From an uncultured Solirubrobacterales bacterium (GTDB taxonomy: Bacteria > Actinomycetota > Thermoleophilia > Solirubrobacterales > Solirubrobacteraceae), in the NCBI GenBank assembly GCA_963834885.1, contig CAWIDF010000008.1, positions 217,371 through 281,370 on the forward strand: a stretch of DNA of 64,000 nt. Reading direction: 5' to 3'. Position 1 is the first letter of the stretch; each line of letters begins with the position of its first letter. The position numbers and the translations under genes were made by a program. Shown one piece after another: positions 2,211 through 19,632 of this stretch. Under the pieces are notes generated by a model that saw only the letters and a program-made list of their open reading frames with translations, was not told where the DNA came from and searched no databases.

Positions 2211-3152
2211 ATGGCCAGGTTCATCCTCAAGCGACTCGGTCTCGCGCTGATCACGCTGTGGATCCTGAGCGTGATCGTGTTCGTGCTGGGTCAGGTACTA
2301 CCCAGCGATCCCGGAAGAGCGGTGCTTGGGCCGCTCGCGGATCCTCGCGCCGTGAAGGCCCTCGACCACCAACTGGGTGTCGACAAGCCATTGCTGACCC
2401 AATACTGGAACTGGATCACGAACTTCCCCGGAACCTCGACGCAGTACCAGGGGCCGATCGGGCCGATCCTTGGCCCCGCGCTCGGCCGCTCGATAAAGCT
2501 CGCGATCTTTGCGTTCATCATCGTCGTGCCACTCGGGATCTTCGGGGGGGTGGTGTCGGCCCTGAACTACGGAAAGCCGATCGATCGGACGATCAGCATC
2601 GTGGGGCAGTCGGTGTTGACCATCCCGGAGTTCGTATCGGGGATCATTCTCATCGTTGTATTTGCGGTCGAGCTGAAATGGTTACCCGTATCGGCCACGG
2701 CACCGCCGGGCTCCGGGTTCTTCACCCAGCTCAAATACCTGATCCTGCCCGTGATCCCCTTGGTGTTGGTCCTGTTCGGTTACATCGCGAGGATGGCCAG
2801 GGTGGGGACCGTGGAGGCACTCGAGTCCGACTATGCCCGCACCGCGATCCTCAAGGGCCTGCCGCGGGGCGTTGTGGTCCGGCGCCACATCCTGCGTAAC
2901 TCACTGCTGCCGACGATCACCGTGGTCGCGACTCAGACCGGTTACCTGATCGGCGGGCTGGTCGTGATCGAGACGCTGTTCCGCTACAACGGCATCGGCC
3001 TGCTCACGTACAACGCGGCCAACCAGCACGACATCCCGATGCTCGAGGCGTGCGTGCTGACGATCGGCGTCGTGTACATGGTGGTTACGCTGATTGCGGA
3101 CATTTCGTTCTCGCTGCTCAATCCCCGCATCCGGCTGAAGGCGGCCGAGTGA
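2211..3152 (+). CDS. ABC transporter permease (DppB/OppB-like)
   Basis: FILKRLGLALITL N-terminus; DYARTAILKGL...HILRNSL EAA loop. Confidence 0.93.
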   Translation: MARFILKRLGLALITLWILSVIVFVLGQVLPSDPGRAVLGPLADPRAVKALDHQLGVDKPLLTQYWNWITNFPGTSTQYQGPIGPILGPALGRSIKLAIFAFIIVVPLGIFGGVVSALNYGKPIDRTISIVGQSVLTIPEFVSGIILIVVFAVELKWLPVSATAPPGSGFFTQLKYLILPVIPLVLVLFGYIARMARVGTVEALESDYARTAILKGLPRGVVVRRHILRNSLLPTITVVATQTGYLIGGLVVIETLFRYNGIGLLTYNAANQHDIPMLEACVLTIGVVYMVVTLIADISFSLLNPRIRLKAAE

Positions 3153-4036
3153 GCATCGTCGACGTACCCGTCGAGTCAACCGGCGCGCTCCAGGCCGGTC
3201 GACGGGAGGTCCGCGCCGATCTGCTGCGCGAGCTGTTGCACTCGCCGATGTTCATGATCGGCGCGATCGTGCTGCTGTTCTGGATCGCGTGCGCGATCTT
3301 CGGGCCGACCATCGCGCCGCACGACCCGCTGGCGCAGAACCTCGAGGCGATCAACCGGTCGCCCTCCTCGTCTCACTGGTTCGGCACCGACCAGCTCGGC
3401 CGCGACGTGTTCTCGCGCGTGATCGTGGGTGTGAGGGACGTGATGATCATCGCGCCGCTCGCGACGCTGCTCGGAACGGTGCTGGGAACGATCCTCGGAA
3501 TGCTGATGGGCTATTACCGCGGCCTGGTTGACGACACACTCGGGCGGTTCGTCGAGGCGTTCCTCGCGTTGCCGCTGGTCGTGACGGGGTTGATCGCGCT
3601 GTCGACCCTGGGTCGCTCGAACCTGGTGCTGATCCTCGTGATCGGGGTTCTGTTCACGCCGCTGATCGCGCGCACGGTGCGCGCCGCGGTGCTCCTCGAA
3701 CGCGAGCTCGACTACGTGTCCGCGGCGCGCCTGCGCGGCGAGCGCGGCCCGTACATCATGTTCGTCGAGATCCTGCCCAACGTGTTCGCGCCGATCATGG
3801 TCGAGTTCACGGTGCGCCTGGCCTATGCCATCTTCGCCATCCTCACCCTGACATTCCTGGGGGTCGGCGTCCAGCCGCCGTCGGCCGACTGGGCGCTGGA
3901 CATCTCCGCTAACTTCGGTGTGGTGCCGGCGGGGTATTGGTGGGAGGTCACGTTCGACGCGATCGCGATCATCACGCTGATCGTTGCGGTGACGCTGATC
4001 TCCGACTCGATCCAGGCGACCCTGGAGGACCAGTGA
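3149..4036 (+). CDS. ABC transporter permease (DppC/OppC-like)
   Basis: HWFGTDQLGRDVFSR; DYVSAARLRGE...EILPN; GTG start overlaps upstream TGA. Confidence 0.93.
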   Translation: MSIVDVPVESTGALQAGRREVRADLLRELLHSPMFMIGAIVLLFWIACAIFGPTIAPHDPLAQNLEAINRSPSSSHWFGTDQLGRDVFSRVIVGVRDVMIIAPLATLLGTVLGTILGMLMGYYRGLVDDTLGRFVEAFLALPLVVTGLIALSTLGRSNLVLILVIGVLFTPLIARTVRAAVLLERELDYVSAARLRGERGPYIMFVEILPNVFAPIMVEFTVRLAYAIFAILTLTFLGVGVQPPSADWALDISANFGVVPAGYWWEVTFDAIAIITLIVAVTLISDSIQATLEDQ

Positions 4037-6117
4037 GTACCGCCGCGGACACACCGGCGCAAGGCGCGGTGGACACCCCGCCGCAGGACGCGCTGAGGCT
4101 CGAGGACGTTGACATCACCTATCGCGTGCGAGGACGCGATCTGGTCACGGTGCACGACGTCTCGTTCCGGGTCGGCCGGGGCGAGTCATACGGTCTGGTC
4201 GGGGAGTCGGGCTCGGGCAAGTCGACGATCGCGCTGGCCATCGTCCGCTATCTGGCGCGCAACGGCCGGGTCAGCCGGGGCGGGATCGCGATCGACGGCC
4301 GCGACGTGTTAGCGATGAACCAGGGCGAGCTGCGCCGGCTGCGTCAGAACACCGTCTCAATGGTCTACCAGGAGCCCGGGCGTGCGCTGAACCCGACGCT
4401 CCGCGTCGGGCTGCAGGTGGCCGAGGTGTTCGAGATCGCGGGCGAGGGCAAGGCGCAGGCGCTCGACCGCGCGGAGCAGATGCTGGAGAAGGTGCGTATC
4501 TCGGACCCGGCCGGCGTCATGAACCGTTACCCGCACCAGCTGTCGGGAGGCATGCTCCAGCGAGTCGTGATCGCGATGGCGCTGGCCTCCGACCCCACAC
4601 TGCTGATCCTCGACGAGGCGACGACGGCGCTCGACGCCACCGTCGAGGCCGAGGTGCTCGACCTGGTCACCGCGCTGCGCGCAGAGTTCCACACCTCGCT
4701 GTTGGTGATCAGCCACAACCTGGCCGTGATCTCCAAGATGTGCGACCGCGTCGGCGTGCTGTACGGCGGCGAATTGATGGAAGAGGGCCCGGCTCAGGAC
4801 CTCCTCCACGACCCGCGCAACCCGTACACGGTTGGCCTGCTGCGCTGCATTCCACGCCGGGACACGGTCAAGACGACTCACACGCTCGACACCATCCCGG
4901 GTTTCCCGCCGTCGCCGGGCGAGGTCGAGCACGGCTGCGTGTTTGCCGACCGGTGCGGCCTGGTCCAGCAGCGCTGCCGCGACGAAGACCCTCCCCTCTA
5001 TGACGCCGGGTCGGGCCGACAGTCCCGGTGTCACTTCTGGGAGATCGCGCAGACTCTCCCGCGCGTGGTCAGTCCGGTGCCCGAGCCCGCGGCGGTGCGT
5101 CCCGGCGAGGGCGAGATTCTGGTCAGTGCCGAGGACGTCTCGAAGACGTTCCACATGGAGGGCGAGACGATCCACGGCCTGGTCGACGTGAGTCTCGAGG
5201 TGCGGGCGGGCGAGACGCTCGGGCTGGTCGGCGAATCGGGGAGTGGCAAGACCACGCTGGCGCGCGTCCTGCTCGGACTGACCGAACCCGACAAGGGAGC
5301 GACCCTGGAGATCCAGGGCACACGGCTGCCGGAGCACGCGGGCCGGCGCACGCGCGATCAGCGGAAGTCGCTGCAGATCGTGTTCCAGAATCCGGACTCG
5401 GCCCTGAATCGCCGTCACTCCATCCGGCGACTGCTGTCGCGCTCGCTGTCCAAGCTGGGCGGCTACAGCGGCGATGCGCTGCTGAGCCGGCTGAAGGCGC
5501 TGCTGTCCGAGGTTCGGCTGGCCGATCGCTACCTGCCGATGCGGCCCGGGCAGCTGTCGGGCGGGCTCAAGCAGCGCGTCGCGATCGCCCGGGCGTTCGC
5601 CGGCGATCCCAAGATCGTGGTGTGCGACGAGCCGACCTCGGCGCTCGATGTGTCGGTCCAGGCGGCGATCCTGAACCTCCTGAACGACCTCCAACGCAGA
5701 GAGCAGGTGAGTTACCTGTTCATCAGCCACGACCTCGGCGTGGTGCGCTATCTCTCGGACCGGATCGCGGTTCTGTACCTCGGGCGGATCATGGAGCTCG
5801 GGTCCGCCGAGCAGGTGTTCAACGCGCCGCACCATCCGTACACCGAGGCGCTGCTGTCGGCCGTGCCCACGCTTGAGAACGGCGGCGCCAAGCGCGACCG
5901 GATCAAGCTCGAGGGTGAGATCCCGAGCGCGGCGAACCCGCCCACCGGGTGCGTGTTTCACACTCGCTGTCCGCGGTTCCTGGGCGACATCTGCGTGAAC
6001 ACGGAGCCGCCACTCGCGGAGGAAGAGCCCGGCCATTCCATCCGCTGTCACATCCCCCTCGAGGAGCTCCGGCGCCTCCAGGGCGAGGAGGTCTCGGTTG
6101 CCGGCGCCGGCGACTGA
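4033..6117 (+). CDS. ABC transporter ATP-binding protein, fused DppD/DppF (two NBDs)
   Basis: Two Walker A ([16 protein letters not shown]), signatures LSGGM/LSGGL, two HPY/NPY-Cys C-terminal domains; GTG start overlaps upstream stop. Confidence 0.95.
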
Positions 6118-7294
6118 CGTGGTCTCGGCCGCGCCGGGGACTGCGGCGACCCCGGCGGCGGCGATCGAGATGCGCGCCGCAGTCCTGCGCGAGCCCGGCC
6201 GGCCCGTGGCCGTGGAGACCGTGCTGCTGGCGCCGCCGCGCCGGGGCGAGGTGCTCGTGCGGGTGGTAGCCGCCGGGGTGTGCCACTCCGACGTGCGCCT
6301 GGCCGACGGCGCGCTCGGCGGCGGGCGCTGGCCGATGGTGCTCGGGCACGAGGGCGCCGGCGTGGTCGAAGCGGTCGGCGAGGACGTGATCGACCTCGTT
6401 CCGGGTGACCACGTCGCGTTCTGCTTCGTGCCCTCGTGCGGCGCCTGCGCCGCGTGCCGGTCCGGGCGCCCGACGCTGTGCGAAACGGCCGGTCGTCACG
6501 GCGTCGCCGGGATGCTGATGGACGGCACCTCGCGGCTGCGCACGCCGGACGGCGCGGTGCTCCAGCACGGCCTGATGGCGGCGTGCTTTGCCGAGCACGC
6601 GGTCGTTCCGCTGGCGGGGGCGGTGCGGTTGCCGGCGGAGATCCCGCTGTGGCAGGCCGCGCTGCTCGGCTGCGGGGTGGTGACCGGGATCGGGGCGGTC
6701 AACCTGGCGCAGCTCCGCGTGGGCGCGCACGTGTGCGTGATTGGGTGCGGCGGCGTCGGGCAGCAGGTGATCGCCGGCGCGCGGCTGGCCGGCGCGGGGA
6801 TGATCGTGGCCGTCGACGCCGACGAGACGAAGCTCGAGCTCGCGCGGCGGCGCGGCGCGACGCACGCGGTGCGCGCAGGCGCGGGCGCCCATGTCGTCGA
6901 GGAGGTACGTGCCATCTCTGGTGGCGGAGTCGAGCGCGCATTCGAGGTGGTCGGCGCCGCGACCACGATCCGCCAGGCCTGGGATGTGCTCCGCCCAGGC
7001 GGCACGGCGATCGTCGTCGGCCTGGCGCCGGCCGGGGTCGAGGTGTCGCTGCCCGCGATCGAGTTCCTGAGCGAGAAGACGATCACCGGCTGCTACTACG
7101 GCTCGGCCGACGTCCACGCCGCGCTCGGCCAGCTCGCCCAGCTCGTGGTCGACGGCCGGCTCTCGGTCGCCGATGTGGTCACGGACCTGATCGGGCTCGA
7201 TGACGTCGAGGAGGCGCTGGGCCGCCTGCGCCGCGGCGAGGGCGGGCGCTCGGTGATCGTGATCGACGAGGAGCTCGCCGGGGTGGCGCGGTGA
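6098..7294 (+). CDS. Zn-dependent alcohol dehydrogenase (MDR family, class III-like)
   Basis: GVCHSD, GHEGAG, structural Zn CGACAACRSGRPTLC, GCGGVG; TTG start with GAGGAGGT SD (alternative ATG 6170). Confidence 0.92.
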   Translation: MPAPATDVVSAAPGTAATPAAAIEMRAAVLREPGRPVAVETVLLAPPRRGEVLVRVVAAGVCHSDVRLADGALGGGRWPMVLGHEGAGVVEAVGEDVIDLVPGDHVAFCFVPSCGACAACRSGRPTLCETAGRHGVAGMLMDGTSRLRTPDGAVLQHGLMAACFAEHAVVPLAGAVRLPAEIPLWQAALLGCGVVTGIGAVNLAQLRVGAHVCVIGCGGVGQQVIAGARLAGAGMIVAVDADETKLELARRRGATHAVRAGAGAHVVEEVRAISGGGVERAFEVVGAATTIRQAWDVLRPGGTAIVVGLAPAGVEVSLPAIEFLSEKTITGCYYGSADVHAALGQLAQLVVDGRLSVADVVTDLIGLDDVEEALGRLRRGEGGRSVIVIDEELAGVAR

Positions 7295-7836
7295 ACTGGA
7301 ACGAGCAGTTGGCGCGCCGGCTCGACGGGCAGATCGGCGAGGGGTGGGGCGGGAAGCCGGGTCCCGATGGCTGCCACGTGAACGTGGTCCTGGGTGTCCG
7401 TGGGACGCCCACCGCCGCCTCGATCATCGGCACGTTCACCACGCCGTCCCCGGGCCACACGCCGATCCTCGTGGTCGTCGGCGAGAGCCAGGACAGCTAC
7501 GAGCCGGTATGGCCGCCGACGGTCATGATCAACAAGGCCACGGCGCTCGACGACCGCCATCAGACGATCACCTGGGGCGCGGGGCAGCTGGGGATCGCGC
7601 AGGGCGTGCTCGACGCGGTGGCGGACGGGCTGATTCCGCCGAGCGGCGACCTCGTCGTGCTCGTTTGCGTATGGATCGACCCCGGCGCGTCGGACGAGAC
7701 GGCCGTGCGGGCGGCCGCTCGGGTGGCCACGCGGAATGCGCTCGGCGTGGCGGTTCGCGGCCGGGAGCTCGGGGCTGCGAAGGCGCTGGTGGAACGGCGC
7801 GATTCCGTGACCAGCCCGTTCTACGAGGGGTCGTAA
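7291..7836 (+). CDS. fae: Formaldehyde-activating enzyme (Fae / H4MPT hydro-lyase) family protein
   Basis: By-eye colinear match to M. extorquens Fae: IGEG..CHVNVVLGVRGTP (VGEA..AHIDLIIGPRGSP), PPTVMINKAT (PNTLMFNKVT), GAGQLGIAQGVLDAVADGLIP ([21 protein letters not shown]), VLVCVWI (VLVGVFI), terminal SPF (HPF). Confidence 0.85.
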   Translation: MNWNEQLARRLDGQIGEGWGGKPGPDGCHVNVVLGVRGTPTAASIIGTFTTPSPGHTPILVVVGESQDSYEPVWPPTVMINKATALDDRHQTITWGAGQLGIAQGVLDAVADGLIPPSGDLVVLVCVWIDPGASDETAVRAAARVATRNALGVAVRGRELGAAKALVERRDSVTSPFYEGS

Positions 7837-7838
7837 GC

Positions 7839-8966
7839 TTGCGGATAACGGCGATCCGGCTCCAGCGGTTGACGCTGCCGCTGGACCCTCCGTTCTACGC
7901 CGCCTGGGACCCGGTGCCGCGGCGCACGTTCGACGCCACGATCGTGCGCGTGGAGACCGACGCCGGCCTGACCGGGATCGGCAGCGGGGACACCATGGCC
8001 GGCTTTGATGACTATTTTCGGTTGTTCGTGGGCCGGGACCCCCTCGCCGTTGCCCGGCACGCACGAACGCTGGAGACGGTCTCGTTTCACGGCGGGCGCT
8101 TCTGGCCGTTCGAGGCGGCCCTGTGGGACCTGCTCGGGCAGGCGTGCGGCGTGCCCGTGGCCACCCTGCTCGGGGGCTCCGCATCTGCGATACCGGCCTA
8201 CGCCTCGTGGGGCGAGTTGCGCGACCCCGGCCGGCGCGCCGAGGACGCGCACGCGCTGGTGGAGGAGGGCTTTCGCGCGGTCAAGGTAAGGATCGCGCGC
8301 GGGCGGCTCGACGAGGGAATCGCCGTCGTGGCGGCGATCCGGGCGGCGGTCGGCGACGCCCTCGAGATCATGGTCGACCTCAACCAGTGGTGGCGGATGG
8401 CGGGCGACATCGCGCCCCGGAACGGACCGGTCGACGCGCGGCGCGTGATCGAGCGCCTGCGTTCCCACGGCGTGGTGTGGATCGAGGAGCCACTGCCGGG
8501 CGAGGACCTGCGGGGCATGCGGACGCTGCGCGATCAGACCGGCGTAAGGGTCGGCGGCGGCGAGATGGCGCGTACGTTCGAGGAGCTGCGCCTCGCGCTC
8601 GAGGAGGATGCGCTCGACGTGTTCCAGCCCGACGTCGTGCTCGCCCTCGGGATCTCGGGCGCGCGCACGCTGGCCGAACTCGCGCTGCGGCGCAACCGGT
8701 GGTTCACGCCGCACACCTGGACGAACGGGATCGGGCTGCTGGCCAACCTGCACGTGTGTGCCGGCGTGGGCGGCGGGCCGTTCCTCGAGTTTCCCTACGA
8801 CCCGCCCGGATGGACGCCGGACCGGCGCGACTTCATGCTCGACACGCCGCTGGGGTTGTCGGGTGACGGGGTCGTCCGCGTGCCGGACGCCCCGGGGCTC
8901 GGCGTGGTCCTCGATGAGGAGGCGGTCGAGTTCTACGCCGAGGCGGAGCAGGCGGTGCGGGGCTGA
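7839..8966 (+). CDS. Enolase superfamily, mandelate racemase-subgroup enzyme (acid-sugar dehydratase/racemase-like)
   Basis: TTG start 2 nt after fae stop; EAALWDLLGQ, KVR, metal ligands VDLNQ / WIEEP / GGEM, QPD and PHTW (His-Asp dyad). Confidence 0.88.
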   Translation: MRITAIRLQRLTLPLDPPFYAAWDPVPRRTFDATIVRVETDAGLTGIGSGDTMAGFDDYFRLFVGRDPLAVARHARTLETVSFHGGRFWPFEAALWDLLGQACGVPVATLLGGSASAIPAYASWGELRDPGRRAEDAHALVEEGFRAVKVRIARGRLDEGIAVVAAIRAAVGDALEIMVDLNQWWRMAGDIAPRNGPVDARRVIERLRSHGVVWIEEPLPGEDLRGMRTLRDQTGVRVGGGEMARTFEELRLALEEDALDVFQPDVVLALGISGARTLAELALRRNRWFTPHTWTNGIGLLANLHVCAGVGGGPFLEFPYDPPGWTPDRRDFMLDTPLGLSGDGVVRVPDAPGLGVVLDEEAVEFYAEAEQAVRG

Positions 8967-10405
8967 GGACCGAGGCGTTCATCGACGGGCGGTTCGTCGC
9001 GGCCGCCGACGGGCGAACGTTCGAGGACGTGTCCCCGCGCGACGGAAGCGTCCTCGCCGCGGTGGCGCGTTGCTCGGGCGAGGACATTGACCGCGCGGTC
9101 CGCGCGGCGCGGCGATCGTTCGACGACGGCGGCTGGGCGCTGGCCGATCCCCGCGAGCGCAAGCGGGTGCTGCTGCGCCTGGCCGAGCTGATCGACGAGC
9201 ACGCTGAGGAGCTGGCGCAGCTGGAGTCCGCCGACGTCGGACACCCGATCAGCGACGCGCGTAATGTCGACGTCCCGGGCGCGCGCAATTGCTTCGCCTG
9301 GTACGCGGAGGCGATCGACAAGGTGTACGGAGAGATCGCCCCGACCGGCGCTGACGCGCTGGCGCTGATCGGGCGCGAGCCGCTCGGGGTGGTCGGCGCG
9401 GTGGTGCCGTGGAACTACCCGCTGATCATCACGGCCTGGAAGCTCGGGCCCGCGCTCGCCACCGGGAACTCGGTGGTGTTGAAACCGGCCGAGCAGTCTC
9501 CGCTGACCGCGCTCGCGCTGGCCGAGCTCGCGGCGGAGGCGGGGGTCCCGGACGGCGTGTTGAACGTGGTACCCGGGTACGGCGAGGAAGCGGGCGAGCC
9601 GCTCGGGCGCCACCCGCTGGTCGACAAGCTTGCGTTCACCGGGTCGGTGGAGATCGGGCGGCGGTTCCTCGTCTACGCCGGCGAGTCGAATGGCAAGGCG
9701 GTGTCGCTGGAGCTGGGCGGCAAGACCCCGCACGTCGTGCTGGCGGATGCCGGCGATCTGGACGCGGCCGTTCAGGCCATCGGCTGGGGGATCTTCTACA
9801 ACGCCGGTCAGACCTGTCACGCAGGATCCCGGGTGGTCGTGCAGCGCTCGCTGGTGGCGCCGGTGTCGGAGTTGCTGGTGGAGTTCGCAGGCGAGTTCAT
9901 CCCAGCCGACCCCGCCGACCCGGCCACAAAGCTGGGCGCGATGGTGAGCACTGAGCATCTCGCCGGCGTGCTCAGCCGGGTAGAGCGTGCCGTCGGGGAT
10001 GGAGCGCGACTGTTGGTCGGAGGGTCGCGGGTCGAGCCCGTCCAGGGTGGCGCGTACATGCAGCCCACGGTCATCGAGGCTCTCGATCCGGCCGATCCGA
10101 TCGTGCAGGAGGAGGTTTTCGGGCCGGTGGTGGCGATCCAGCCGGCCGACGACGTGGAGCACGCGGTCGCTCTCGCCAACGGCACCGGCTACGGGCTGGC
10201 GGCGGCGGTGTGGAGCTCGAACATCACGACCGCGCATCGGGTGGCGCGGCGGTTGCGGGCTGGGACGGTGTGGGTCAACACGTTCGACGTGTCCTCGCTG
10301 ACCACGCCGTTCGGCGGCGTCAAGGATTCGGGCCACGGGCGCGACCGGTCGCTCCACGCGCTCGACGGCTACACGCACCTCAAGACGACGTGGGTGGCGC
10401 TGTGA
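8963..10405 (+). CDS. NAD(P)-dependent aldehyde dehydrogenase (PuuC-like)
   Basis: VVPWNYP, FTGS, ELGGKTP, GQTC catalytic Cys, EEVFGPV; homology (FIDGRFV...TFEDVSP) extends upstream of ORF-track start to a CTG overlapping the previous TGA. Confidence 0.93.
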   Translation: MRTEAFIDGRFVAAADGRTFEDVSPRDGSVLAAVARCSGEDIDRAVRAARRSFDDGGWALADPRERKRVLLRLAELIDEHAEELAQLESADVGHPISDARNVDVPGARNCFAWYAEAIDKVYGEIAPTGADALALIGREPLGVVGAVVPWNYPLIITAWKLGPALATGNSVVLKPAEQSPLTALALAELAAEAGVPDGVLNVVPGYGEEAGEPLGRHPLVDKLAFTGSVEIGRRFLVYAGESNGKAVSLELGGKTPHVVLADAGDLDAAVQAIGWGIFYNAGQTCHAGSRVVVQRSLVAPVSELLVEFAGEFIPADPADPATKLGAMVSTEHLAGVLSRVERAVGDGARLLVGGSRVEPVQGGAYMQPTVIEALDPADPIVQEEVFGPVVAIQPADDVEHAVALANGTGYGLAAAVWSSNITTAHRVARRLRAGTVWVNTFDVSSLTTPFGGVKDSGHGRDRSLHALDGYTHLKTTWVAL

Positions 10406-11322
10406 CCGCGATCGAGCGGGTCGGGTTCATTGGCCTGGGCAACATGGGCGGGCCGATGTGCGGCCACCTAGCTCGGGCGGGGTTCTCCGTGACGGCGTTC
10501 GACTTGGATCCCGGTGCTTTGGAGCGGGCCGTCGATGCGGGTGCCCGCGCGGCCGGGAGTGCCGCGGAGTGCGCCCGGGACGCTCAGGTGCTGATCACGA
10601 TGCTGCCGGCGCCACCGCACGTCGAGTCGGTCTGGCTCGGCTCCGGAGACGGCGGCGCGATCGCCGCGCTCGAGCCGGGGGCCCTGGCGATCGACATGAG
10701 CACGAGCTCGACCGCGGTCGGGGCGCGCGTGGTCGACGCCGCGAGAGCGCGCGGGGTCGATGTGCTCGACGCTCCGGTCGCCGGGCAGTCGCTCGGCGCC
10801 CAGGCCGGGAGGCTCGCGATCTACGTGGGCGGTTCCGAGGAGGCGTTCGCCCGGGCGTTGCCGTTGTTCGAGGTGATGGGCGACCCGGCGCGGATCTTCC
10901 ATCTGGGCGGAAACGGCGCCGGGTACACGGTCAAGCTGCTCCTGAACCTGATGTGGTTCATCGAGTCGGTCGCGGTGGCCGAGGTGCTGACGGTTGGGGT
11001 GCGAGCAGGGGTGTCGCTGGATCGGTTGCATTCCGCCCTGGTCGGGTCGCCGGCCAACTCCGTGTTCCTCGAGCGGGACGTCCGAATGGTGCTCGACGAC
11101 GGTGACTACGACGAGGCGTTCCCGATGCGCCTGGTCACCAAGGACCTGGGCCTGGCCATCGACCTGGCCCGCGAGGTGGGCGTGCCGGTTGAGCTGAGCG
11201 CGCTCGTCGAGCAGATCCAGCGGCGCGCCCGCGCCGCGTACGGCGACGCCGCTGGGGAGATCAGCGCGGTCCGCCTGTATGAGGATGTGGCCGGCGTGTT
11301 ACTCCGGCTGCCCAAGACCTGA
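10402..11322 (+). CDS. Beta-hydroxyacid dehydrogenase (3-hydroxyisobutyrate/GarR family)
   Basis: GFIGLGNMG, DMST, DAPVAG, VKLLLN catalytic Lys, KDLGLA. Confidence 0.92.
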   Translation: MTAIERVGFIGLGNMGGPMCGHLARAGFSVTAFDLDPGALERAVDAGARAAGSAAECARDAQVLITMLPAPPHVESVWLGSGDGGAIAALEPGALAIDMSTSSTAVGARVVDAARARGVDVLDAPVAGQSLGAQAGRLAIYVGGSEEAFARALPLFEVMGDPARIFHLGGNGAGYTVKLLLNLMWFIESVAVAEVLTVGVRAGVSLDRLHSALVGSPANSVFLERDVRMVLDDGDYDEAFPMRLVTKDLGLAIDLAREVGVPVELSALVEQIQRRARAAYGDAAGEISAVRLYEDVAGVLLRLPKT

Positions 11323-11337: not shown

Positions 11338-12318
11338 ATGGCGCGCGTAGCCCGGGCCGTCGCGGTTGATTTCGAGTGGGATGACGACTACGCGCTCGAG
11401 CGCGCCGCGCTCGCCCCGATCGGTGTCGAGCTGACGCCCGCGGGCGAACTGCGGGGGAGTGACGTCGCGGACGTGGTGGCGCTGCTCACGGCGGGTACCC
11501 GCGTGGACGGCGATGAGCTGGGGCGCTACCCGCGCCTGCGCGTGGTGTCCGAGTTCGGCACCGGCTATGACGGCATCGACGTCGATGCCGCCGCGCGGCT
11601 CGGGATCGCGGTGACCAACGTCGCCGGCTACTGCACCGAGGAGGTGGCCGATCACACACTGGCCCTCGCGCTCACGCTGGTGCGACGGATCGAGCCACTG
11701 TCCCGGCAGGCGCGCGCGGGGCGCTGGGCCACGGTCGACACGGGATCGATCGCTCGCAGCGCCGACTCGACGTGGGGGGTGGTCGGATTCGGGCGCATCG
11801 GCCGCGCGGTGGCGCGACGGGCGGTCGCGTTCGGATTCACCGTGTGCGCGTACGACGCTTACCTCGATCGCCGCGAGGTCTGCGATTACGGCGCCGAGCC
11901 GCTGGAGCTAGACGCTCTGCTCCGCCGGGCCGACGTGATCAGTGTCCACGCTGCACGCACCGGCCGCGACGATCGCATGCTCGACCGCCGGCGCATCTCG
12001 CTCCTGAAGCCCAGCGCGTATCTGGTCAACGTCGCGCGCGGGGCGTTCGCCGACGAGGACGCCCTGGCCGAGGCGCTCGACCAGGGTGCGCTGGCCGGGG
12101 CGGCGCTCGACGTCCTGGCCGACGAGCCGCCGGCGCCGGACAACCGGCTGCTCCATCACCCGCGGGTGCTGGTCACCCCGCACAGCGCGTGGTACTCGGA
12201 TCGGGCCGCGATCGAGCTTCGGACCCGGGGGGTCGGCGCCGTGGTCGACGTGCTGTCGGGACGCCGGCCGGCCGATCTGGTGCCCGAGCTCAGCGCTTGG
12301 GTGCCGGCGCGAAGCTGA
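11338..12318 (+). CDS. D-2-hydroxyacid dehydrogenase (CtBP/PGDH-like)
   Basis: GTGYDGID, EEVADHT, GFGRIG, NVARG, DVLADEP, PHSAWYS (R/E/H triad). Confidence 0.92.
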   Translation: MARVARAVAVDFEWDDDYALERAALAPIGVELTPAGELRGSDVADVVALLTAGTRVDGDELGRYPRLRVVSEFGTGYDGIDVDAAARLGIAVTNVAGYCTEEVADHTLALALTLVRRIEPLSRQARAGRWATVDTGSIARSADSTWGVVGFGRIGRAVARRAVAFGFTVCAYDAYLDRREVCDYGAEPLELDALLRRADVISVHAARTGRDDRMLDRRRISLLKPSAYLVNVARGAFADEDALAEALDQGALAGAALDVLADEPPAPDNRLLHHPRVLVTPHSAWYSDRAAIELRTRGVGAVVDVLSGRRPADLVPELSAWVPARS

Positions 12319-13891
12319 CCATCGCCGCGCTGGCGGCGGGCAGCTGAACCCTGTACTGCCCGTTGCTCGGCGGCACGCGGTCGGGCTGGAACGATCCGGT
12401 CAGGGTGCCGGTGGAGGTCTCGTCGCCGAAGCTCTGGCCGGCCAGCGTCACGCCATCCGTGGCGGCCGCGCTCGGCGCGGTGAGCGGCTCGACGATCGCG
12501 GTCTTGGTGGCGCCTCCCGGAGGTGCCAGATCCACGACCTTGTTGGCGCTCAGGCTGTCGTTGATCAGCACAACGTTGATCTGGCCGGTCGGCGTGAGCG
12601 TGGCGCGGACCCGGACGTCCGGATCGGCCGGGGAGTTCACGGCCAGCAGGCGTGAGCCGGGCGGGGCAGCCTCGGTGAACAGCAGGAGACCGTAGTACTC
12701 GGGCTTCACCTCGCCCAGCCAGTGGCCGCCCACCTGCTGGAAGGTGAACGGGTGGTAGTCGGCCTCCGGCAGCGTGTGGATGTTCACCCCGTCCACTCCG
12801 GACCGCGCCATCGCGAACAGCGTGTCGACCATCCACAGAGCCGAGGCGAAGGTGTCGCTGACGCCGGCCTGTCCCTTGCACGCCACCGAGTTCAGTTCGT
12901 CGACGCGGAACGTGGCGTGGTGCTGGTGCGCGAGGGCGATGTACTTGCCGGCGCCTTGCAACAGACCACGGGCGGAGGACGGGTCGAGCAGGTTCGGGAT
13001 GCTCGGGTAGTTCGGGTCCCCCGGCTGCGTGAAGCACTTGATCAGCGGATACCGGTGGTAGGTGACGATCTTGGTCTCCGGCTCGGCGACGAACAGCTTG
13101 TTGAGCCGAGTCAGCCACGCGTACGAGCCCGTGGCCGGCCCGGCGAACGGCGATCCGCTCAGGAGCTTGCTCAGCCTCGACATCTCGCTGGCGTAGGCCT
13201 TGAAGTGGTAGGCCCTCGGTCGCGGATACACCGCGGTGGTATTCGGGCTGAGGTAGTAGAACGGCGTGATCGGATAGAGCTCGGGCTCGTTGCCGATCTC
13301 GAACGCGTCGATCCGGCTGCGGCCGATGCCCGTCTGGAGCGCGCGCGCCTCGGTCGACACCTCGGCGGCGCTGTTCAGCTTGAGGTTCAGGTCGAGGATC
13401 ATGTGCGCGTCGGTGTCGACCGCCAGCGCACGCGTGGTGGCGAGCCAGCTGTGGTTGAGCGTGTACGTGATGCCCGGCGTGCACCTGATCGCCGGGGTCG
13501 GCCACCAGGTCTCATCGGCGCTGTTGCCGCCAATCCGCAGCACCGGAGACTGGTCGGGCGCCAAGTTGCGGATCAGCTGCACCAACACCGGATTGATCGC
13601 CCGCGGATTGGATCCGGTGTACTCCCGAACAGCCTGATACTCGAACGAGAACCCGACGAAGCCCGGGGCGATCGGACGGCCGACTGGGGTATGGCTGACG
13701 CGCACCGTCACCGGCGGGGAGGTCGTGGGGGGCGGAGTCGTCGGCGCGGGGGTCGGTGGCCCAGGGGCGGGCGGTGGGGGGGTCGTTGTCGAAGGGCAGC
13801 TCGGCGCCGCGCGAACCGAGCGCGCGGTGCCCGATAGGATCGTCGCGGCGGCAAGCGACGCCACGAGCAAGGCTGTCAACGTCCGGCGCAC
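12290..13891 (-). CDS. Secreted glycoside hydrolase family 79 (beta-glucuronidase/heparanase-like)
   Basis: Signal peptide, Pro/Thr linker, LRIGGNSAD, FEIGNEPE (acid/base), RVDELNS (nucleophile), VSDTFASALWMVD. Confidence 0.85.
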   Translation of the reverse strand: MRRTLTALLVASLAAATILSGTARSVRAAPSCPSTTTPPPPAPGPPTPAPTTPPPTTSPPVTVRVSHTPVGRPIAPGFVGFSFEYQAVREYTGSNPRAINPVLVQLIRNLAPDQSPVLRIGGNSADETWWPTPAIRCTPGITYTLNHSWLATTRALAVDTDAHMILDLNLKLNSAAEVSTEARALQTGIGRSRIDAFEIGNEPELYPITPFYYLSPNTTAVYPRPRAYHFKAYASEMSRLSKLLSGSPFAGPATGSYAWLTRLNKLFVAEPETKIVTYHRYPLIKCFTQPGDPNYPSIPNLLDPSSARGLLQGAGKYIALAHQHHATFRVDELNSVACKGQAGVSDTFASALWMVDTLFAMARSGVDGVNIHTLPEADYHPFTFQQVGGHWLGEVKPEYYGLLLFTEAAPPGSRLLAVNSPADPDVRVRATLTPTGQINVVLINDSLSANKVVDLAPPGGATKTAIVEPLTAPSAAATDGVTLAGQSFGDETSTGTLTGSFQPDRVPPSNGQYRVQLPAASAAMVSFAPAPKR

Positions 13892-13906: not shown

Positions 13907-15112
13907 TCAGAGAACGCCGACCCCGTGCGATGCGGCCTCGTCCCACACCGCGTGGAGGGTGGGGGGCTTGCGGAAGACGAGACCTTGGATCTTCGACGGA
14001 CGTTCCGGATCGAGTCTCAGGTTCGGCAGCCGGCGCAGCAGGGTCGCGAGCGCCGTGCGCGCCTCGAGCCGGGCGAGGTGGACGCCCACGCACACGTGCG
14101 GCCCCTGGGCGAAGGCGAGATGGCGGGGGCGGCGCGGCCGGTCCGGGTCGAACCGGTCAGGATCCGGGAAGATCGCGGGGTCGCGGTTGGCGGCGGTGAT
14201 CGAGACGCGAACGAGGTCGCCCTGGTCGATGTCGGCGCCGGCGATGTGCGCGTCGGCCGTGGCGTAGCGGTCGACGACCGCGGCGGCCGGCTCCAGCCGG
14301 AGCGACTCCTCGATCGCGGCGTCGAGCTGGGCCGGGTCGTGTTTGGCTCCGGCGAGGATTTGCGGGTGCTCGAGCAAGAGCAGGAGCGCGTTGGCGATCA
14401 TCCCCTCGGTCGTCTCGATGCCCCCGAACAGCAGCACGCCGGCGTTCGAGACGATCTGGTCGGCGCTGAGGTCCGCGTGCGCCGCGGCGGCGGCGAGCAG
14501 CGAGGCGTCGGGATCGGACTCGATGGCGGCGAGTAGGCGCTCGCGCAGGGAGGCGAAGGCGTCGCGGCCGCTCTGCGGCGTTTCGTGGCCGGCGGTGATC
14601 TCCGTCACCGCGGTCACGATCCCGTCGTACCAGGTCAGCATCGCGTCGACCTCGTTGTGGTCGATCCCGAGGGCTCGAGCCATGATGGCCGCGGCGAGCG
14701 GGCCGGCGAACGAGCGGCGCAGCTCGGCGGTGCCGGCGGGCGCGAAGGCGTCGATCAGGCGGTCGGCCTCGGTCGTTGCCGGCTGGGCGAAGCGTTCGCG
14801 GACCGCCGTCGGCCGGAACGGGCCGACGAACGGCGCGCGGTGGCGCGCGTGGGCGTCGCCGTCGAGGCTCAGCATGCTCGGGCCGACGATCTGGGCGGTG
14901 CTGAAACGCGGGTCGTCCACGGTGAAGGTTGTGGCGTCGCGCATCACGGCGAGCGCCAGATCGCGGCGGGTGACGAGCCACCCGTCCAACGCCGGCAGCC
15001 ACGAGACGGGCTCGCTCTCGCGCAGCCGGGCGTGGACCGGGTGAGGGTCCTGGTCGAGCTGCTCGAGGGTGACGCTCGCACCGAGCGGGAAGGCGTCGCT
15101 TGGGTGCGTCAC
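13907..15112 (-). CDS. Cytochrome P450
   Basis: GGIETT I-helix, EESLR, FAQGPHVCVG heme Cys; GTG start at 15112 overlaps hutI TGA. Confidence 0.93.
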   Translation of the reverse strand: MTHPSDAFPLGASVTLEQLDQDPHPVHARLRESEPVSWLPALDGWLVTRRDLALAVMRDATTFTVDDPRFSTAQIVGPSMLSLDGDAHARHRAPFVGPFRPTAVRERFAQPATTEADRLIDAFAPAGTAELRRSFAGPLAAAIMARALGIDHNEVDAMLTWYDGIVTAVTEITAGHETPQSGRDAFASLRERLLAAIESDPDASLLAAAAAHADLSADQIVSNAGVLLFGGIETTEGMIANALLLLLEHPQILAGAKHDPAQLDAAIEESLRLEPAAAVVDRYATADAHIAGADIDQGDLVRVSITAANRDPAIFPDPDRFDPDRPRRPRHLAFAQGPHVCVGVHLARLEARTALATLLRRLPNLRLDPERPSKIQGLVFRKPPTLHAVWDEAASHGVGVL

Positions 15113-16347
15113 CGACGTGTGATCCGCCACGCCGAGTCCGGGCGCACGTACACGGGATCGCCGGCGATGAACGTGGCGGCGACGGGGTTGTGGCCGAGGC
15201 GATAGGCGATGTGCTCGCTGGGCGAGTCGAGCAGCACGAGGTCGGCCCGCTTGCCCGGCTCGATCGAGCCCAGCTCGCTCGAGAGGTCGAGCACGTAGGC
15301 CGCGTTCAGCGTGACCGCGAGCAGCGCCTCGCGCGTGCTCAGCCCGTATCTGCGGACGGCCAGGCCGACGATCAGCGGCAGCGAGAAGATCGGCGAGGTG
15401 CCCGGGTTGGCGTCGGTGGCGAGCATGACGATCGCGCCGGCGTCGATCAGCGCGCGCGCCGGCGCGACCGCCTCGGCGCCCATGAACTCGGCCCCGGGGA
15501 GCAGCCCGGCGGCGGTGTCGGATGCGCCGAGGGGCGCGATGTCGTCGGGGTGGATGGCGCTCAGGTGGTCGAGCGAGCGGGCGTTGTGTTTGAGGGCGGT
15601 TGGGACCGAGCGCATGGTCGAGAACTGCTCGACGTGGGCGCGGAGGATCAGGTTGTTCGCCGTCGCCAGCTCGCCCATCCGGTCGAGCTGCTCGAGTCCG
15701 AACGCGATCGACTCGACGAAGATGTCGAGCGCGGTGGCGTACTCGGCGGCTTCCGGGATCATCGCCTCGACCTCGTCCATCCACGTGTCCGCGGTGTAGC
15801 CCGCCGGCACCACGTGGGCGAGGAGGGCCGTGCGGGTCGTGGTCTGCTCGACGGACCGGCTCAGCTCGGTGGCGAGCTTGAGCGACCGGAGCTCGCCGGT
15901 GCGCGAGAGGCCGTAGCCGGACTTGCACTCGAACGTGGTCGTGCCGTGCTCGAGCATCTCGCCGGCTAATTGGCGAGCCTGCTGGAGTATCGCGTCGTCG
16001 GGCGTGTCGCTCAGCGCGCGGGCCGAGGAGGCGATGCCCCCGCCGGCCTTGGCGATCTCCTCGTACGGCACGCCCGTGACCTTCATGTCGTACTCCTCGG
16101 CGCGCCAGCCGGCGAAGGGAAGGTGGGTGTGGCAGTCGACCAGGCCGGGGAGGAGCGCGCACCCGGTGGCGTCGATGTGGACGTCGGCGGTTCTCGAGGG
16201 CTCGAGGGCGGCGATCCGCCCGTCGTCGTCCACCGTGATCCCGCCAGGGTCGAGCCGTAGCTCGCCGGCGCGGTGGGTTCGCAGACACGGGAGGTTCGGC
16301 TCCGGTGGCGTGAGGACCTGGGCGGCGTTGTCGAAGGAGGTGGTCAC
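15109..16347 (-). CDS. hutI: Imidazolonepropionase
   Basis: PGLVDCHTH, GVPYEEIAKAGGGI, HGTTTFECKSGYGL, HVEQF, ATDANPGTSP. Confidence 0.93.
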   Translation of the reverse strand: MTTSFDNAAQVLTPPEPNLPCLRTHRAGELRLDPGGITVDDDGRIAALEPSRTADVHIDATGCALLPGLVDCHTHLPFAGWRAEEYDMKVTGVPYEEIAKAGGGIASSARALSDTPDDAILQQARQLAGEMLEHGTTTFECKSGYGLSRTGELRSLKLATELSRSVEQTTTRTALLAHVVPAGYTADTWMDEVEAMIPEAAEYATALDIFVESIAFGLEQLDRMGELATANNLILRAHVEQFSTMRSVPTALKHNARSLDHLSAIHPDDIAPLGASDTAAGLLPGAEFMGAEAVAPARALIDAGAIVMLATDANPGTSPIFSLPLIVGLAVRRYGLSTREALLAVTLNAAYVLDLSSELGSIEPGKRADLVLLDSPSEHIAYRLGHNPVAATFIAGDPVYVRPDSAWRITRR

Positions 16348-16393
16348 GCGCGGGCAGATGTGGGGGCCGCCGGCGCGCGTCCGGAGGGGATCG

Positions 16394-18031
16394 TCATTGG
16401 TCGCCCAGCATCGGGACGCGCAACCCGTGCTCGTGCGCCGCCGTCACCGCGGTGTCATAGCCGGCGTCCACGTGCCGCAGAACGCCGAGGCCCGGGTCGG
16501 CCTTCAACACCCGCTCGATCCGGCGGGCGGCCAGGTCCGTGCCGTCGGCGACGCACACCTGGCCGGCGTGGATCGACTTGCCCATGCCGACGCCGCCGCC
16601 GTGGTGGATCGAAACCCAGCTTGCCCCGCACGCGGTGTTGACCAAGGCGTTCAACAGCGGCCAATCGGCGATCGCGTCCGAGCCGTCGGCCATCGCTTCG
16701 GTCTCGCGCTGGGGGGAGGCGACCGAGCCGGCGTCGAGGTGGTCGCGTCCGATCACGATCGGGGCCTTGACCTCACCCGAGGCCACCATCTCGTTGAAGC
16801 GCAGCCCCGCCAAATGGCGCTCGCCGTAGCCGAGCCAGCAGATCCGCGCCGGCAGTCCCTGGAACTGGACGCGCTCGGCCGCGAGCTTGATCCAGCGCGC
16901 GATGTGCTCCTGGTCGCCGAACAGATCGAGGATCGCGCGGTCGGTGGCGTGGATGTCGGCCGGATCGCCCGACAGCGCCACCCAGCGGAACGGGCCCTTG
17001 CCCTCGCAGAACAGCGGCCGCACGTACGCCGGGACGAAGCCGGGATAGCTAAAAGCATCCTTGTCCCCATGCTCGTAGGCAAGGCCGCGCAGCGCGTTGC
17101 CGTAGTCGAACGCCTCGGCGCCGGCGGCGGCGAGCGAATGGATCGCCTCCACGTGCGTGACGGCGGATTCGCCGACGCGTCTGAGATATTCGTCAGCATT
17201 GGTCTGGCGCAGGGCGGCGGCTTGTTCGAGGGTCAGGCCGGCCGGGATGTAGCCGTTCAGCGGGTCGTGGGCCGAGGTCTGGTCGGTCACCACGTCGACT
17301 TCGACCCCGCGGCGCACGAGCTCGGGCAGGATCTCGGCCGCGTTGCCGGCGAGGCCGATTGACAGTGCCCGGCGCTCGCGGCGTGCGGCGTCGAGCCGCG
17401 CCAGCGCGTCGTCCAGATCCGCCGCGCGCTCGTCCAGGTACCGGCCGCGGATGCGACGCTCGATCCGCTGGAGGTCGACCTCGACGCACAGCGCGGTCCC
17501 GCCGTTCATGGTGATCGCGAGGGGCTGGGCGCCGCCCATCCCGCCCAGGCCGGCGGTCACCACGAGACGACTGGCCAAAGACCCGCCGAAGCGCTTACGC
17601 GCGATCGCCGCGAACGTCTCGTACGTCCCCTGCAGGATCCCCTGGCTCCCGATGTAGATCCAGGAGCCGGCGGTCATCTGGCCATACATGATCAGACCGG
17701 CGGCGTCGAGCTTGCGGAACTCGTCCCAGTTCGCCCAGTCGGGCACCAGGTTCGAGTTGGCCAGCAGTACCCGAGGCGCCTGCTCGAACGTCTGGAACAC
17801 CGCGACGGGCTTGCCGGACTGCACGAGCAGCGTCTCGTCGTCCTCGAGGCGCTGGAGCTCGCGGACGATCGCGTGATAGCTCGGCCAGTTGCGGGCCGCC
17901 TTGCCGATCCCGCCGTAGACGACGAGCTCGGAGGGGTTCTCAGCGACGTCGGGGTGCAGGTTGTTCTCGAGCATGCGCAGCGCCGCCTCCTGGTGCCAGC
18001 CCTTGCATCGCAGCCCGGAGACGCCGGTCAT
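16394..18031 (-). CDS. hutU: Urocanate hydratase
   Basis: [75 protein letters not shown]; ATG overlaps regulator stop. Confidence 0.97.
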
Positions 18032-18693
18032 GCCGCGGCCACTCCGACGTACCCGAGGTCGTGCGACAGCTCGCCGGCGTGGCGCGCCACCGCCCGCCCG
18101 CAGACCTCGACCTTTCGGGCCGTCGTGCGGTACACCGGGGCCAGCACGCTGAGCGCCGCTGCGATCTCGCCGACGGCGCCGTACACGGGGGCGGCGATCG
18201 AGATCACGTCGGGTTCGACCGCCCCGGCCCGGGCCGCGTAGCCGCCGGAACCGACCGCCCCGCGCAGCGCCCCGCCGAGTGCCGTCCCGCGCTGGGGGAT
18301 CGTCCGTCCCGCCCAGCCCACCGTCTGGACCAGCCCTGGGCCGGCGACCTGGCGGAGGTAAACGACCCGCCGGTCGTCCGCCGCCACCGCCAGATTGGCG
18401 GTCTCGCCGGTCTCGGCGGCCAGGGCGCTCAGGTGCCGGCCGGCCAGGTCGTACAGCGGATCCTGGCGCAGGGTCGCCGCGGCGAGCGCTCGGAGGCGGC
18501 CCCCGGCGTGGTAGTGCCCGTGCTCGTCGCGGCGCACGAGCTCCTGGGTGGCCAGCGTGGCCAGCAGCCGCGAGGCAGTGCTCGGCGAGAGATCCGCGGC
18601 GCGCGCCAACCGGCTGAGGTTGCCGCCCTCCTCGGCCACCGCGGTCAGCAGCCTCAGCGCTCGCTCCACGGTGCGGGTCCCGGCTTCCGCCAT
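18028..18693 (-). CDS. IclR-family regulator of the hut cluster (HutR-like)
   Basis: [12 protein letters not shown]-terminal HTH, TGETANL, IAAPV; leaderless-type TAGAGT 8 nt before ATG 18693. Confidence 0.88.
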
Positions 18694-18730
18694 CGGGTCG
18701 CACTCTACCGTAGAATGAAATGCCTTGTCA

Positions 18731-19624: not shown

Positions 19625-19632
19625 CGGGTCCG

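Follow-up and report, generated by a model that had tools for sequence, protein, structure and literature searches.

A Fae-like gene in a catabolic operon

The window, by which we mean the whole 64,000-nucleotide stretch analyzed here, lies on one contig (C8) of the 6.25-Mb, 95% complete genome of an uncultured Solirubrobacterales bacterium and has a G+C content of about 70-74%. At 7291-7836 on the forward strand it contains a gene for a 181-aa protein, hereafter FaeL, which is a divergent relative of the formaldehyde-activating enzyme (Fae). The FaeL gene starts with a GTG codon that overlaps, as GTGA, the TGA stop codon of an upstream gene for a class-III-like, zinc-dependent alcohol dehydrogenase (Zn-ADH; 6098-7294, with a likely start near 6170; ADH_N and ADH_zinc_N domains). 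Two nucleotides past the FaeL stop codon begins the gene for an enolase-superfamily enzyme of the mandelate-racemase (MR) subgroup (7839-8966, TTG start; MR_MLE_C, 178 bits, and MR_MLE_N).

The other genes of the operon are likewise encoded on the forward strand. Upstream of the Zn-ADH gene lie those for a family-5 solute-binding protein of the Opp/Dpp/opine/nickel type (494-2191; Pfam SBP_bac_5, 273 bits), for two ATP-binding cassette (ABC) permeases (2211-3152 and about 3050-4036, the start of the second not being fixed; both have BPD_transp_1, to which the first adds BPD_transp_1_N and the second OppC_N) and for a fused double ATPase resembling DppD/DppF (3937-6117, start codon uncertain; two ABC_tran and two oligo_HPY stretches). 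Downstream of the enolase gene are those for an aldehyde dehydrogenase (ALDH) of the aminoaldehyde/betaine-aldehyde type (8963-10405; Aldedh, 523 bits) and for a beta-hydroxyacid (HIBADH-family) dehydrogenase or semialdehyde reductase (10402-11322; NAD_binding_2 and NAD_binding_11), the GTG start of which overlaps the ALDH stop codon. The last gene encodes a D-2-hydroxyacid dehydrogenase (11338-12318; 2-Hacid_dh_C and 2-Hacid_dh).

FaeL is a true but strongly diverged Fae relative

A sequence-only reading of this locus had placed FaeL in the Fae family and had aligned it by eye, over its full length, with M. extorquens Fae. Profile, alignment and structure searches bore out both statements. 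The Pfam Fae model (PF08714; gathering cut-off 27 bits) matched FaeL significantly, with 95 bits and an E-value of 6e-27, and the match spanned positions 9-158 of the 159 in the profile. In a phmmer search of the PDB, FaeL residues 14-178 aligned with residues 7-166 of M. extorquens Fae (1Y5Y/1Y60; E 4e-18), and the only other sequence relative with a solved structure was an engineered Avd-Fae fusion. An AlphaFold2 model of the FaeL monomer, built from an alignment of 34 sequences, reached a pLDDT of 95.2 and a pTM of 0.90, and Foldseek matched it to 1Y60/1Y5Y with a TM-score of 0.78-0.90 and 32% identity (E 4e-18). Beyond Fae, the Foldseek search returned EF-G domain IV, GyrB and ribosomal protein S9, all with E-values above 0.008 and none of them significant. 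By this predicted model, FaeL has the Fae fold, an alpha/beta fold related to domain 2 of ribosomal protein S5. Enzymes of the Fae family are homopentamers whose active site lies between subunits, and canonical Fae condenses formaldehyde with tetrahydromethanopterin to the methylene derivative.

Intact FaeL orthologues were found in 71 instances among species-representative genomes, all from Solirubrobacterales, Gaiellaceae or unclassified Actinomycetota. The ratio of nonsynonymous to synonymous substitution rates (dN/dS) of these orthologues against the window's FaeL was 0.17-0.56, with dS near saturation. FaeL is thus a genuine gene maintained by purifying selection, and its product is a true but strongly diverged member of the Fae family. 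The divergence was also evident from a more specific model: FaeL scored 77.6 bits against the canonical-Fae equivalog TIGR03126 (EC 4.2.1.147), which is under its 118-bit cut-off. The archaeal Fae/Fae-Hps model NF009833 matched FaeL with 45.5 bits.

The earlier description of the FaeL motifs proved accurate in the alignment with the PDB sequence: AHID is replaced by CHVN, with the His kept, the NK pair is kept, QMFG becomes ITWG, and VFIH becomes VWID. The insert that it had given as six residues measured four in the HMMER and MAFFT alignments (ESQDSYEPVWPP versus PN----LPCKPN). This insertion is confined to a sub-clade comprising the Solirubrobacterales, a Gaiellaceae locus, the class-level family f9 and two metagenomic sequences, and is missing from Domibacillus and the members of family f16. 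The ITWG and VWID stretches are putative pocket positions, a placement made on sequence grounds.

His29 and Gln99 of FaeL, which correspond to Fae His22 and Gln88, were invariant in all 34 aligned sequences. In the abstract of the 2005 Fae structure report by Acharya et al., His22 is said to be the acid catalyst and the side chain of Gln88 is said to flip upon pterin binding. FaeL kept 32 of the 66 columns that are invariant in canonical Fae, as defined by a reference set of only four sequences. Its diagnostic replacements are L13W, D24N, K63W, Q79H, F84W, P86A, A94G, F119W, H121D, W122P and Y135R, among which D24N, F84W, P86A, F119W, H121D and W122P are clade-wide. The canonical signatures AHIDL, xFGPAQ and VFIHW are not retained.

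FaeL belongs to a large non-canonical branch of the family

In a library of representatives clustered at 50% identity, 418 clusters belonged to the Fae superfamily at an E-value of 1e-3 or better, and 21 clusters of the same library matched FaeL at 1e-30 or better. Alignments separated two non-canonical types, groups A and B, with the window's FaeL in group A. Group A is characterized by the motifs LDGRIGEGW... H.N.V... TWGA.QLGI.QGVLDAV... W.DP.A.DETAVR... SPFY.G, and group B by IGE.FVG..AAH.N.VLG... LFVNKA... TWGAAQAGVA... AAVWVNP... NPFF. Seven residues (His29, Gly55, Pro75, Thr77, Lys82, Gly96 and Gln99) were invariant across both groups and canonical Fae. In a maximum-likelihood tree, group A formed a clade with 100/100 support apart from canonical Fae; it comprised the window's FaeL, Gaiellaceae, the actinobacterial families f9 and f16, Domibacillus and metagenomic sequences. 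Opposite it in the tree, canonical Fae and group B were placed together, canonical Fae as a long-branched clade that likewise had 100/100 support. As judged from these comparisons, the residues by which FaeL differs define a large non-canonical Fae branch and are not the peculiarity of one gene.

Some library proteins gave the appearance of domain fusions, "Fae + MR_MLE" or "ADH + Fae", which we rejected: the domains are partial and look like neighboring open reading frames merged in error-prone assemblies, so that they attest to adjacency only. The merged-looking proteins (P0150, P0204, P0230, P0268 and P0260; 480-930 aa) are metagenomic, and frameshifts in long-read assemblies are the apparent cause. 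A further candidate, P0139, was a spurious match to a repeat protein. Short metagenomic contigs carrying distant FaeL homologues yielded no gene context.

In the sections of two papers that deal with Fae grouping (PMC11748545, PMC5023235), five groups are recognized, a defined function is given only for bacterial and archaeal canonical Fae, and the function of the Fae-like groups 2-4 (Fae2, Fae3 and Fae1-2) is described as unknown. Archaeal Fae, which uses tetrahydromethanopterin (H4MPT), is grouped there with the canonical type (PMC11748545). The Fae tree in the same paper includes actinomycete and firmicute sequences, the group of which is not stated in the section concerned.

For groups 2-4, sensing or regulatory roles are suggested in these sections, and fae2 and fae3 mutants are reported there to have no phenotype (PMC11748545, PMC5023235). 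FaeL might similarly be non-catalytic, acting as a sensor of an aldehyde or other ligand, as a regulator or as a scaffold, and genes for IclR or LysR regulators are often found near it. However, the catalytic His and its surrounding motifs are invariant, FaeL has no DNA-binding or signaling domain, and its gene lies translationally coupled inside an enzyme operon. We consider a non-catalytic role highly unlikely.

H4MPT is very unlikely to be the general partner of FaeL

Methanopterin genes were not in view within the window, yet they are present in the organism. A profile search of the whole genome revealed a second Fae gene, on contig C3 (Pfam Fae, 228 bits), the product of which carries AHIDLL, QLFGPAQ and VFIHW, the motifs of canonical Fae, and shares 29% identity with FaeL. 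It lies in an island (C3:671000-690600, locus L075) together with genes for Mch (400 bits), FhcD (FTR and FTR_C domains) and an FhcA-like amidohydrolase, and with ATP-grasp, CitG-like, His_biosynth-like, amino-acid-kinase-like and hydantoinase-like genes. This is a complete, typical bacterial-type H4MPT/methanofuran island of one-carbon (C1) metabolism, and FaeL is a paralog of the genome's canonical Fae.

Mch was then used as a marker for H4MPT in two sets of FaeL-bearing genomes. It was present in 33 and absent from 19 of the 52 genomes of the first set, and present in 9 and absent from 21 of the 30 genomes of the second, which gives 42 of 82 genomes with Mch and 40 of 82 without. Eleven Mch-less genomes were 95-100% complete (G002, G134, G466, G491, G508, G369, G374, G618, G417, G325 and G550, with G508 showing 9% contamination). 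Two of them, G002 (100% complete) and G134 (95%), are from the window's own genus and have neither Mch nor canonical Fae. Outside the order, Mch was absent from every high-quality genome sampled that carries a FaeL-type gene, namely the other nine of these genomes, and from two cultured Domibacillus isolates. Thus, H4MPT cannot be the general partner of FaeL. Within the order, Fae-family genes of any kind are rare (15 of 201 genomes). That Mch is enriched in genomes with FaeL thus probably has a phylogenetic cause, although the way in which the paralog arose could also account for it.

These data bear on the idea that, in this organism if not elsewhere, FaeL is a second Fae isozyme dependent on H4MPT and dedicated to its operon, which would pass formaldehyde from the operon's pathway to the H4MPT oxidation route encoded on C3. 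The genome does have canonical Fae, Mch, FhcD, FhcA and cofactor-biosynthesis-type genes, Mch occurs in FaeL genomes far above the order-wide frequency of the Fae family, and the catalytic His and Gln are retained. Nevertheless, orthologous operons occur in complete genomes that lack Mch or canonical Fae, FaeL falls under the canonical equivalog cut-off, fewer than half of the canonical-invariant positions are kept, with Asp24, Phe84, Phe119, His121 and Trp122 all replaced, and the identity to the cell's own Fae is low. A Fae3-type homologue, moreover, is reported to have failed to complement an M. extorquens delta-fae mutant, in the section of PMC11748545 on such homologues. An isozyme of this kind appears very improbable.

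The sequence-only reading had proposed that FaeL carries out the same chemistry as Fae, carbonyl activation or its reverse with release of formaldehyde, on an acceptor other than H4MPT. That H4MPT is very unlikely as the general acceptor is supported by the 40 Mch-less genomes; tetrahydrofolate, a thiol and a substrate amine are candidates for the actual acceptor. A related carbonyl chemistry is plausible given the retained His, with formaldehyde as a putative substrate and the reverse direction as a conceivable variant.

The FaeL operon is conserved, with variable members

Among the 71 related loci, a Zn-ADH gene lies immediately upstream of FaeL in 63, an enolase gene adjoins FaeL in 65, as it also does in other actinobacterial lineages, and a HIBADH-type gene follows in 65. 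The solute-binding protein gene is syntenic in most of them. The order ZnADH-FaeL-Enolase-HIBADH was observed in 38 loci and the same order plus ALDH in 22; truncated variants that retain FaeL-Enolase account for five, and FaeL-HIBADH, in which the HIBADH-type gene is the sole operon partner, and FaeL alone for three each. ALDH, present in 24 of 71 loci, is thus a variable member. The D-2-hydroxyacid dehydrogenase gene was found in three of 71, about 4.5 kb farther downstream than in the window.

Other lineages retain parts of this arrangement. In families f9 and f16 the order is ABC importer-ADH'-FaeL-Enolase-ADH, with neither HIBADH nor ALDH in the flanks that were fetched. Among carriers of group B, G374 has FaeL-Enolase-ALDH-Fe-ADH (Fe-ADH denoting an iron-type alcohol dehydrogenase), with an enolase 64% identical to that of the window, and in G618 the genes run amino-acid permease, arginase-family enzyme, SSF transporter, FaeL, ALDH and class-III aminotransferase. 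Domibacillus, whose group A protein is 39% identical to FaeL, has a BCCT transporter-ZnADH-ALDH gene set divergent from FaeL-IclR-ABM. The two Domibacillus loci (L080 and L081) are from D. mangrovi SAOS 44 and D. aminovorans DSM 1314, both cultured Bacillaceae. The order LysR-FaeL-HIBADH was seen in G002 and at loci L045 and L105, with a gene for an ABM-domain protein after HIBADH in L045.

FaeL is dispensable inside an otherwise conserved module. Orthologues of the window's enolase, with 56-64% identity, occur in an Enolase-ALDH-FeADH module in seven genomes of family f21, only one of which has FaeL. Loci of this f21 type include L118-L122, from genomes G360, G290, G333, G608 and G500.

The operon partners are predicted to act on aldehydes and hydroxy acids

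The Zn-ADH was 36-40% identical to ADH5-type enzymes and reached only about half of the cut-offs of the NCBIfam models TIGR03989, TIGR02818 and TIGR03451. At the positions that contact glutathione (GSH) in ADH5, which we take to be Asp55, Glu57 and Arg114, the aligned Zn-ADH has Leu, Gly and Gly. On both counts, the low model scores and the differing GSH contacts, we rejected orthology of the Zn-ADH with the formaldehyde dehydrogenases that depend on GSH or mycothiol.

These results are relevant to the possibility that FaeL forms a hemithioacetal from an aldehyde, either formaldehyde or that of the pathway, and a low-molecular-weight thiol, and that the Zn-ADH oxidizes this adduct to a thioester and so replaces ALDH. 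The stop/start overlap of FaeL with a class-III-like Zn-ADH would agree with such a partnership, as would the many operons that have one or two Zn-ADHs and no ALDH, and the f21 modules, which have ALDH and FeADH and mostly lack FaeL; the gfa-flhA system of Paracoccus is a precedent. On the other hand, the operon has no thioesterase, the Zn-ADH departs from the thiol-dependent enzymes as described above, and Domibacillus keeps FaeL despite an ALDH next to its ADH. The thiols of the carriers also differ between Actinomycetota and Bacillaceae, which fits poorly with a binding surface that is conserved between them (39% identity, shared motifs). This partnership seems improbable to us.

The enolase has the D/E/E metal ligands and the His-Asp dyad (QPD...PH) of the MR subgroup, and K-V-R replaces the KxK motif. 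Its best PDB matches were 3SJN, 5OLC and 4GGB, the nearest structures being uncharacterized targets of the Enzyme Function Initiative and 5OLC, which was deposited as a "galactonate dehydratase" and which we take to be an anhydro-galactonate cycloisomerase. Since the dyad occurs without the second Lys, the enzyme is more likely a dehydratase or lyase than a racemase, and its residues point to a probable one-base dehydratase or beta-eliminating lyase. A betaine epimerase of the HpbD type was considered and rejected: HpbD was not among the top 60 PDB matches, and the second Lys is missing.

The ALDH fell under the cut-offs of the PuuC, BADH and ABALDH models, as did the HIBADH-type enzyme with the models for tartronate-semialdehyde reductase and HIBADH. 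The first canonical start codon of the ALDH gene is the GTG at 9029, yet a motif conserved near the N-terminus of the enzyme (T-E-A-F-I-D-G) is encoded ahead of this codon. In frame before 9029, the sole start candidate is the CTG at position 8963, which shares CTGA with the stop codon of the enolase gene. Either the ALDH has a non-canonical start or it lacks about 40 N-terminal residues that its orthologues have.

Gene contexts point to nitrogen compounds

The transporters and flanking genes of FaeL repeatedly point to nitrogen compounds, namely betaines, choline-like alcohols, opines, peptides and amines. The best PDB relatives of the window's solute-binding protein are binders of peptides and opines (8UPI, 5U4O, AgaA and DppA), with nickel binders among the neighbors, and this mixture does not resolve the ligand. 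At L028 and L054, FaeL lies between an OpuA-type betaine importer and hut or HAL-like genes, and L054 has a BHMT-like methyltransferase gene as well. The Enolase-ALDH-FeADH module of family f21 stands next to an OpuA-type betaine ABC importer at L118, and at L121 it lies between a gene resembling dimethylglycine (DMG) oxidase (DAO and GCV_T domains) with an IclR gene and genes for a BHMT-like methyltransferase and an MFS transporter. This setting hints at a betaine-type acid as the substrate of the MR-type enolase, from which trimethylamine might, for instance, be removed by beta-elimination in a route resembling one for homocholine or beta-alanine betaine. A literature search on homocholine and beta-alanine betaine returned nothing usable.

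Facing the operon from the reverse strand is a gene at 12290-13891, which keeps its place in many of the related loci. Its 533-aa product has an apparent signal peptide, as judged by eye, a Pro/Thr-rich linker and a weak match to a GH79 C-terminal beta-domain. Just downstream of the FaeL operon, on both strands of 13907-21111, lies a P450-hutI-hutU-IclR cluster with a HAL-like lyase (19633-21111). Downstream of FaeL, a P450 gene recurs in at least 43 of 71 loci, with identities down to 58-65%, and hutU in 34 of 71. Given this recurrence, the FaeL operon and the P450-hut cluster may together form one catabolic island for betaine or histidine-betaine.

A different partnership is seen at L101 (9126-10456) in G417, where the gene for a group B protein overlaps by 16 nt a gene for a HalD/BesD-like iron/2-oxoglutarate-dependent (Fe/2OG) oxygenase (PF23169, 42.5 bits). 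This is a distinct, tightly coupled pairing for a Fae-like protein. With L028, L054 and L101 as exceptions, the neighbors of FaeL in its operon form include enzymes that make or use aldehydes (Zn-ADH, Fe-ADH, ALDH or the HIBADH-type enzyme).

Contexts of this kind would fit the possibility that FaeL traps formaldehyde on tetrahydrofolate (H4F), or on another universal carrier, in the service of the breakdown of methylated amines or betaines, in which N-methyl groups yield formaldehyde. OpuA-type betaine importer and BHMT-like methyltransferase genes occur near FaeL (L028, L054, L045 and L022), Domibacillus has the BCCT transporter, and the f21 module stands beside OpuA, DMG-oxidase-like and BHMT-like genes. 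The P450-hutI-hutU cluster with its HAL-like lyase and the overlap with the Fe/2OG oxygenase gene would fit as well. So would the protein itself, in which the equivalents of His22 and Gln88 are invariant and in which the conserved surface and the C-terminal arm suggest a pterin-sized ligand. The universal occurrence of folate suits the spread over Actinomycetota and Bacillaceae, and an H4F-linked role has been proposed for Fae-like proteins, in the section of PMC11748545 that concerns them. However, neither an oxidative demethylase nor any other evident source of formaldehyde is encoded in the core operon, and the translational coupling of FaeL is to the ADH and the enolase. No folate enzyme was found directly beside FaeL, DMG and sarcosine oxidases have folate domains of their own, and the G618 context (arginase family, aminotransferase and ALDH) has no obvious methyl groups. 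We regard formaldehyde trapping on folate as the main competing explanation, and as a rather doubtful one.

A proposed role for FaeL

The explanation that we favor, tentatively and as something short of probable, is that FaeL is an accessory, H4MPT-independent lyase that acts on a pathway aldehyde, in an operon for the catabolism of a nitrogen compound that resembles choline, betaine or an opine and is taken up from outside. That FaeL is an enzyme, that its substrate is a pathway aldehyde, and the identity of the nucleophile are all points that we infer. In the proposed mechanism, the conserved His29 would serve as general acid. The aldehyde would be one that the neighboring NAD(P)-dependent enzymes (Zn-ADH, the HIBADH-type enzyme and ALDH) make or consume, and FaeL would speed an addition to, or an elimination from, its carbonyl carbon. 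Candidates are the making or breaking of a gem-diol, of a hemithioacetal, or of a carbinolamine or hemiaminal. Steps of these kinds also proceed spontaneously, like the reaction of canonical Fae, and loss of FaeL from some otherwise identical modules is the pattern that would be expected for this reason.

Several observations weigh against a lyase acting on a pathway aldehyde. The organism itself carries the H4MPT genes and canonical Fae on contig C3. In 38 of the 71 loci, which have the full Zn-ADH-FaeL-enolase-HIBADH core, no ALDH was found, and no sequence of reaction steps could be pieced together. At L028 and L054, moreover, FaeL stands by itself, flanked by betaine ABC importer genes and hut genes, and no dehydrogenase gene adjoins it. 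In addition, the protein has a large conserved surface that includes Gln99 and the C-terminal arm (RRDS.TSPFY.G), which a bulky cofactor would fit better than a small aldehyde alone.

A broader proposal, which we put forward with considerable doubt, is that the Fae branch with Asn31, Trp95 and Trp128 constitutes a second functional type of the family. It would be either the long-sought enzyme for the coupling of formaldehyde to H4F or a cofactor-independent lyase for the C-N bond of carbinolamines or onium compounds. Together with the MR-type enolase, as an enzyme eliminating a beta-amine or beta-onium group, and with NAD dehydrogenases, it would then form an undescribed route for the catabolism of choline-, homocholine- or opine-like compounds in soil Actinomycetota and some Bacillaceae.

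Implications for annotation

In studies of genomes and soil metagenomes, fae is taken as a marker of methylotrophy and of C1 metabolism linked to H4MPT, and members of the FaeL clade are uniformly annotated in databases as "formaldehyde-activating enzyme" or "5,6,7,8-tetrahydromethanopterin hydro-lyase". Because the clade is present in bacteria that do not have the cofactor, these annotations are probably wrong for it, and they probably over-call H4MPT-linked methylotrophy in soil metagenomes. The function of Fae-like paralogs such as Fae2 and Fae3 has been in question for about two decades, and the conserved operon partners and the cultured carriers, Domibacillus aminovorans and D. mangrovi, make this question directly testable. 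If the acceptor is H4F, a gap in C1 biochemistry would be filled; if FaeL acts on a pathway aldehyde, the Fae fold would gain a new type of reaction, and a new route of catabolism, abundant in soil Thermoleophilia, would come to light.

Comparison with known systems

FaeL falls in a branch of the Fae family that is on record but has been left without an explanation. In the literature we found no description of the conserved ADH-FaeL-enolase-HIBADH operon, of its spread over H4MPT-less Actinomycetota and Bacillaceae, or of the association between the partner module and genes for betaine and choline. The closest characterized protein is Fae of Methylorubrum (Methylobacterium) extorquens AM1 (1Y5Y/1Y60), which is of the same fold and length class and about 32% identical over the full length, and of which His22, Gln88, Thr66, Asn70-Lys71 and Gly85 are conserved in FaeL. 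FaeL differs from it in scoring under the equivalog cut-off, in ten-odd replacements and in the four-residue insertion. It differs from canonical Fae also in being encoded in a catabolic operon (on C8) instead of a C1 gene island (as on C3), and in having orthologues in genomes without H4MPT. Archaeal Fae and Fae-Hps (NF009833) have the Fae domain in common with FaeL, whereas the Hps domain is missing from FaeL and the archaeal enzymes use H4MPT.

Fae2, Fae3 and Fae1-2 are, like FaeL, non-canonical Fae homologues; the published cases, however, are from methylotrophs. A functional analogue of another kind is Gfa of Paracoccus denitrificans, a glutathione-dependent, formaldehyde-activating zinc protein that is encoded beside the class-III Zn-ADH that oxidizes its adduct. 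Gfa resembles FaeL in its proposed accessory role, the acceleration of a spontaneous addition of a nucleophile to an aldehyde, and in the class-III-type Zn-ADH gene alongside. In contrast to FaeL, Gfa is a zinc protein of unrelated fold with a known thiol acceptor, and the FaeL operon is without a hydrolase for S-formyl-thiols.

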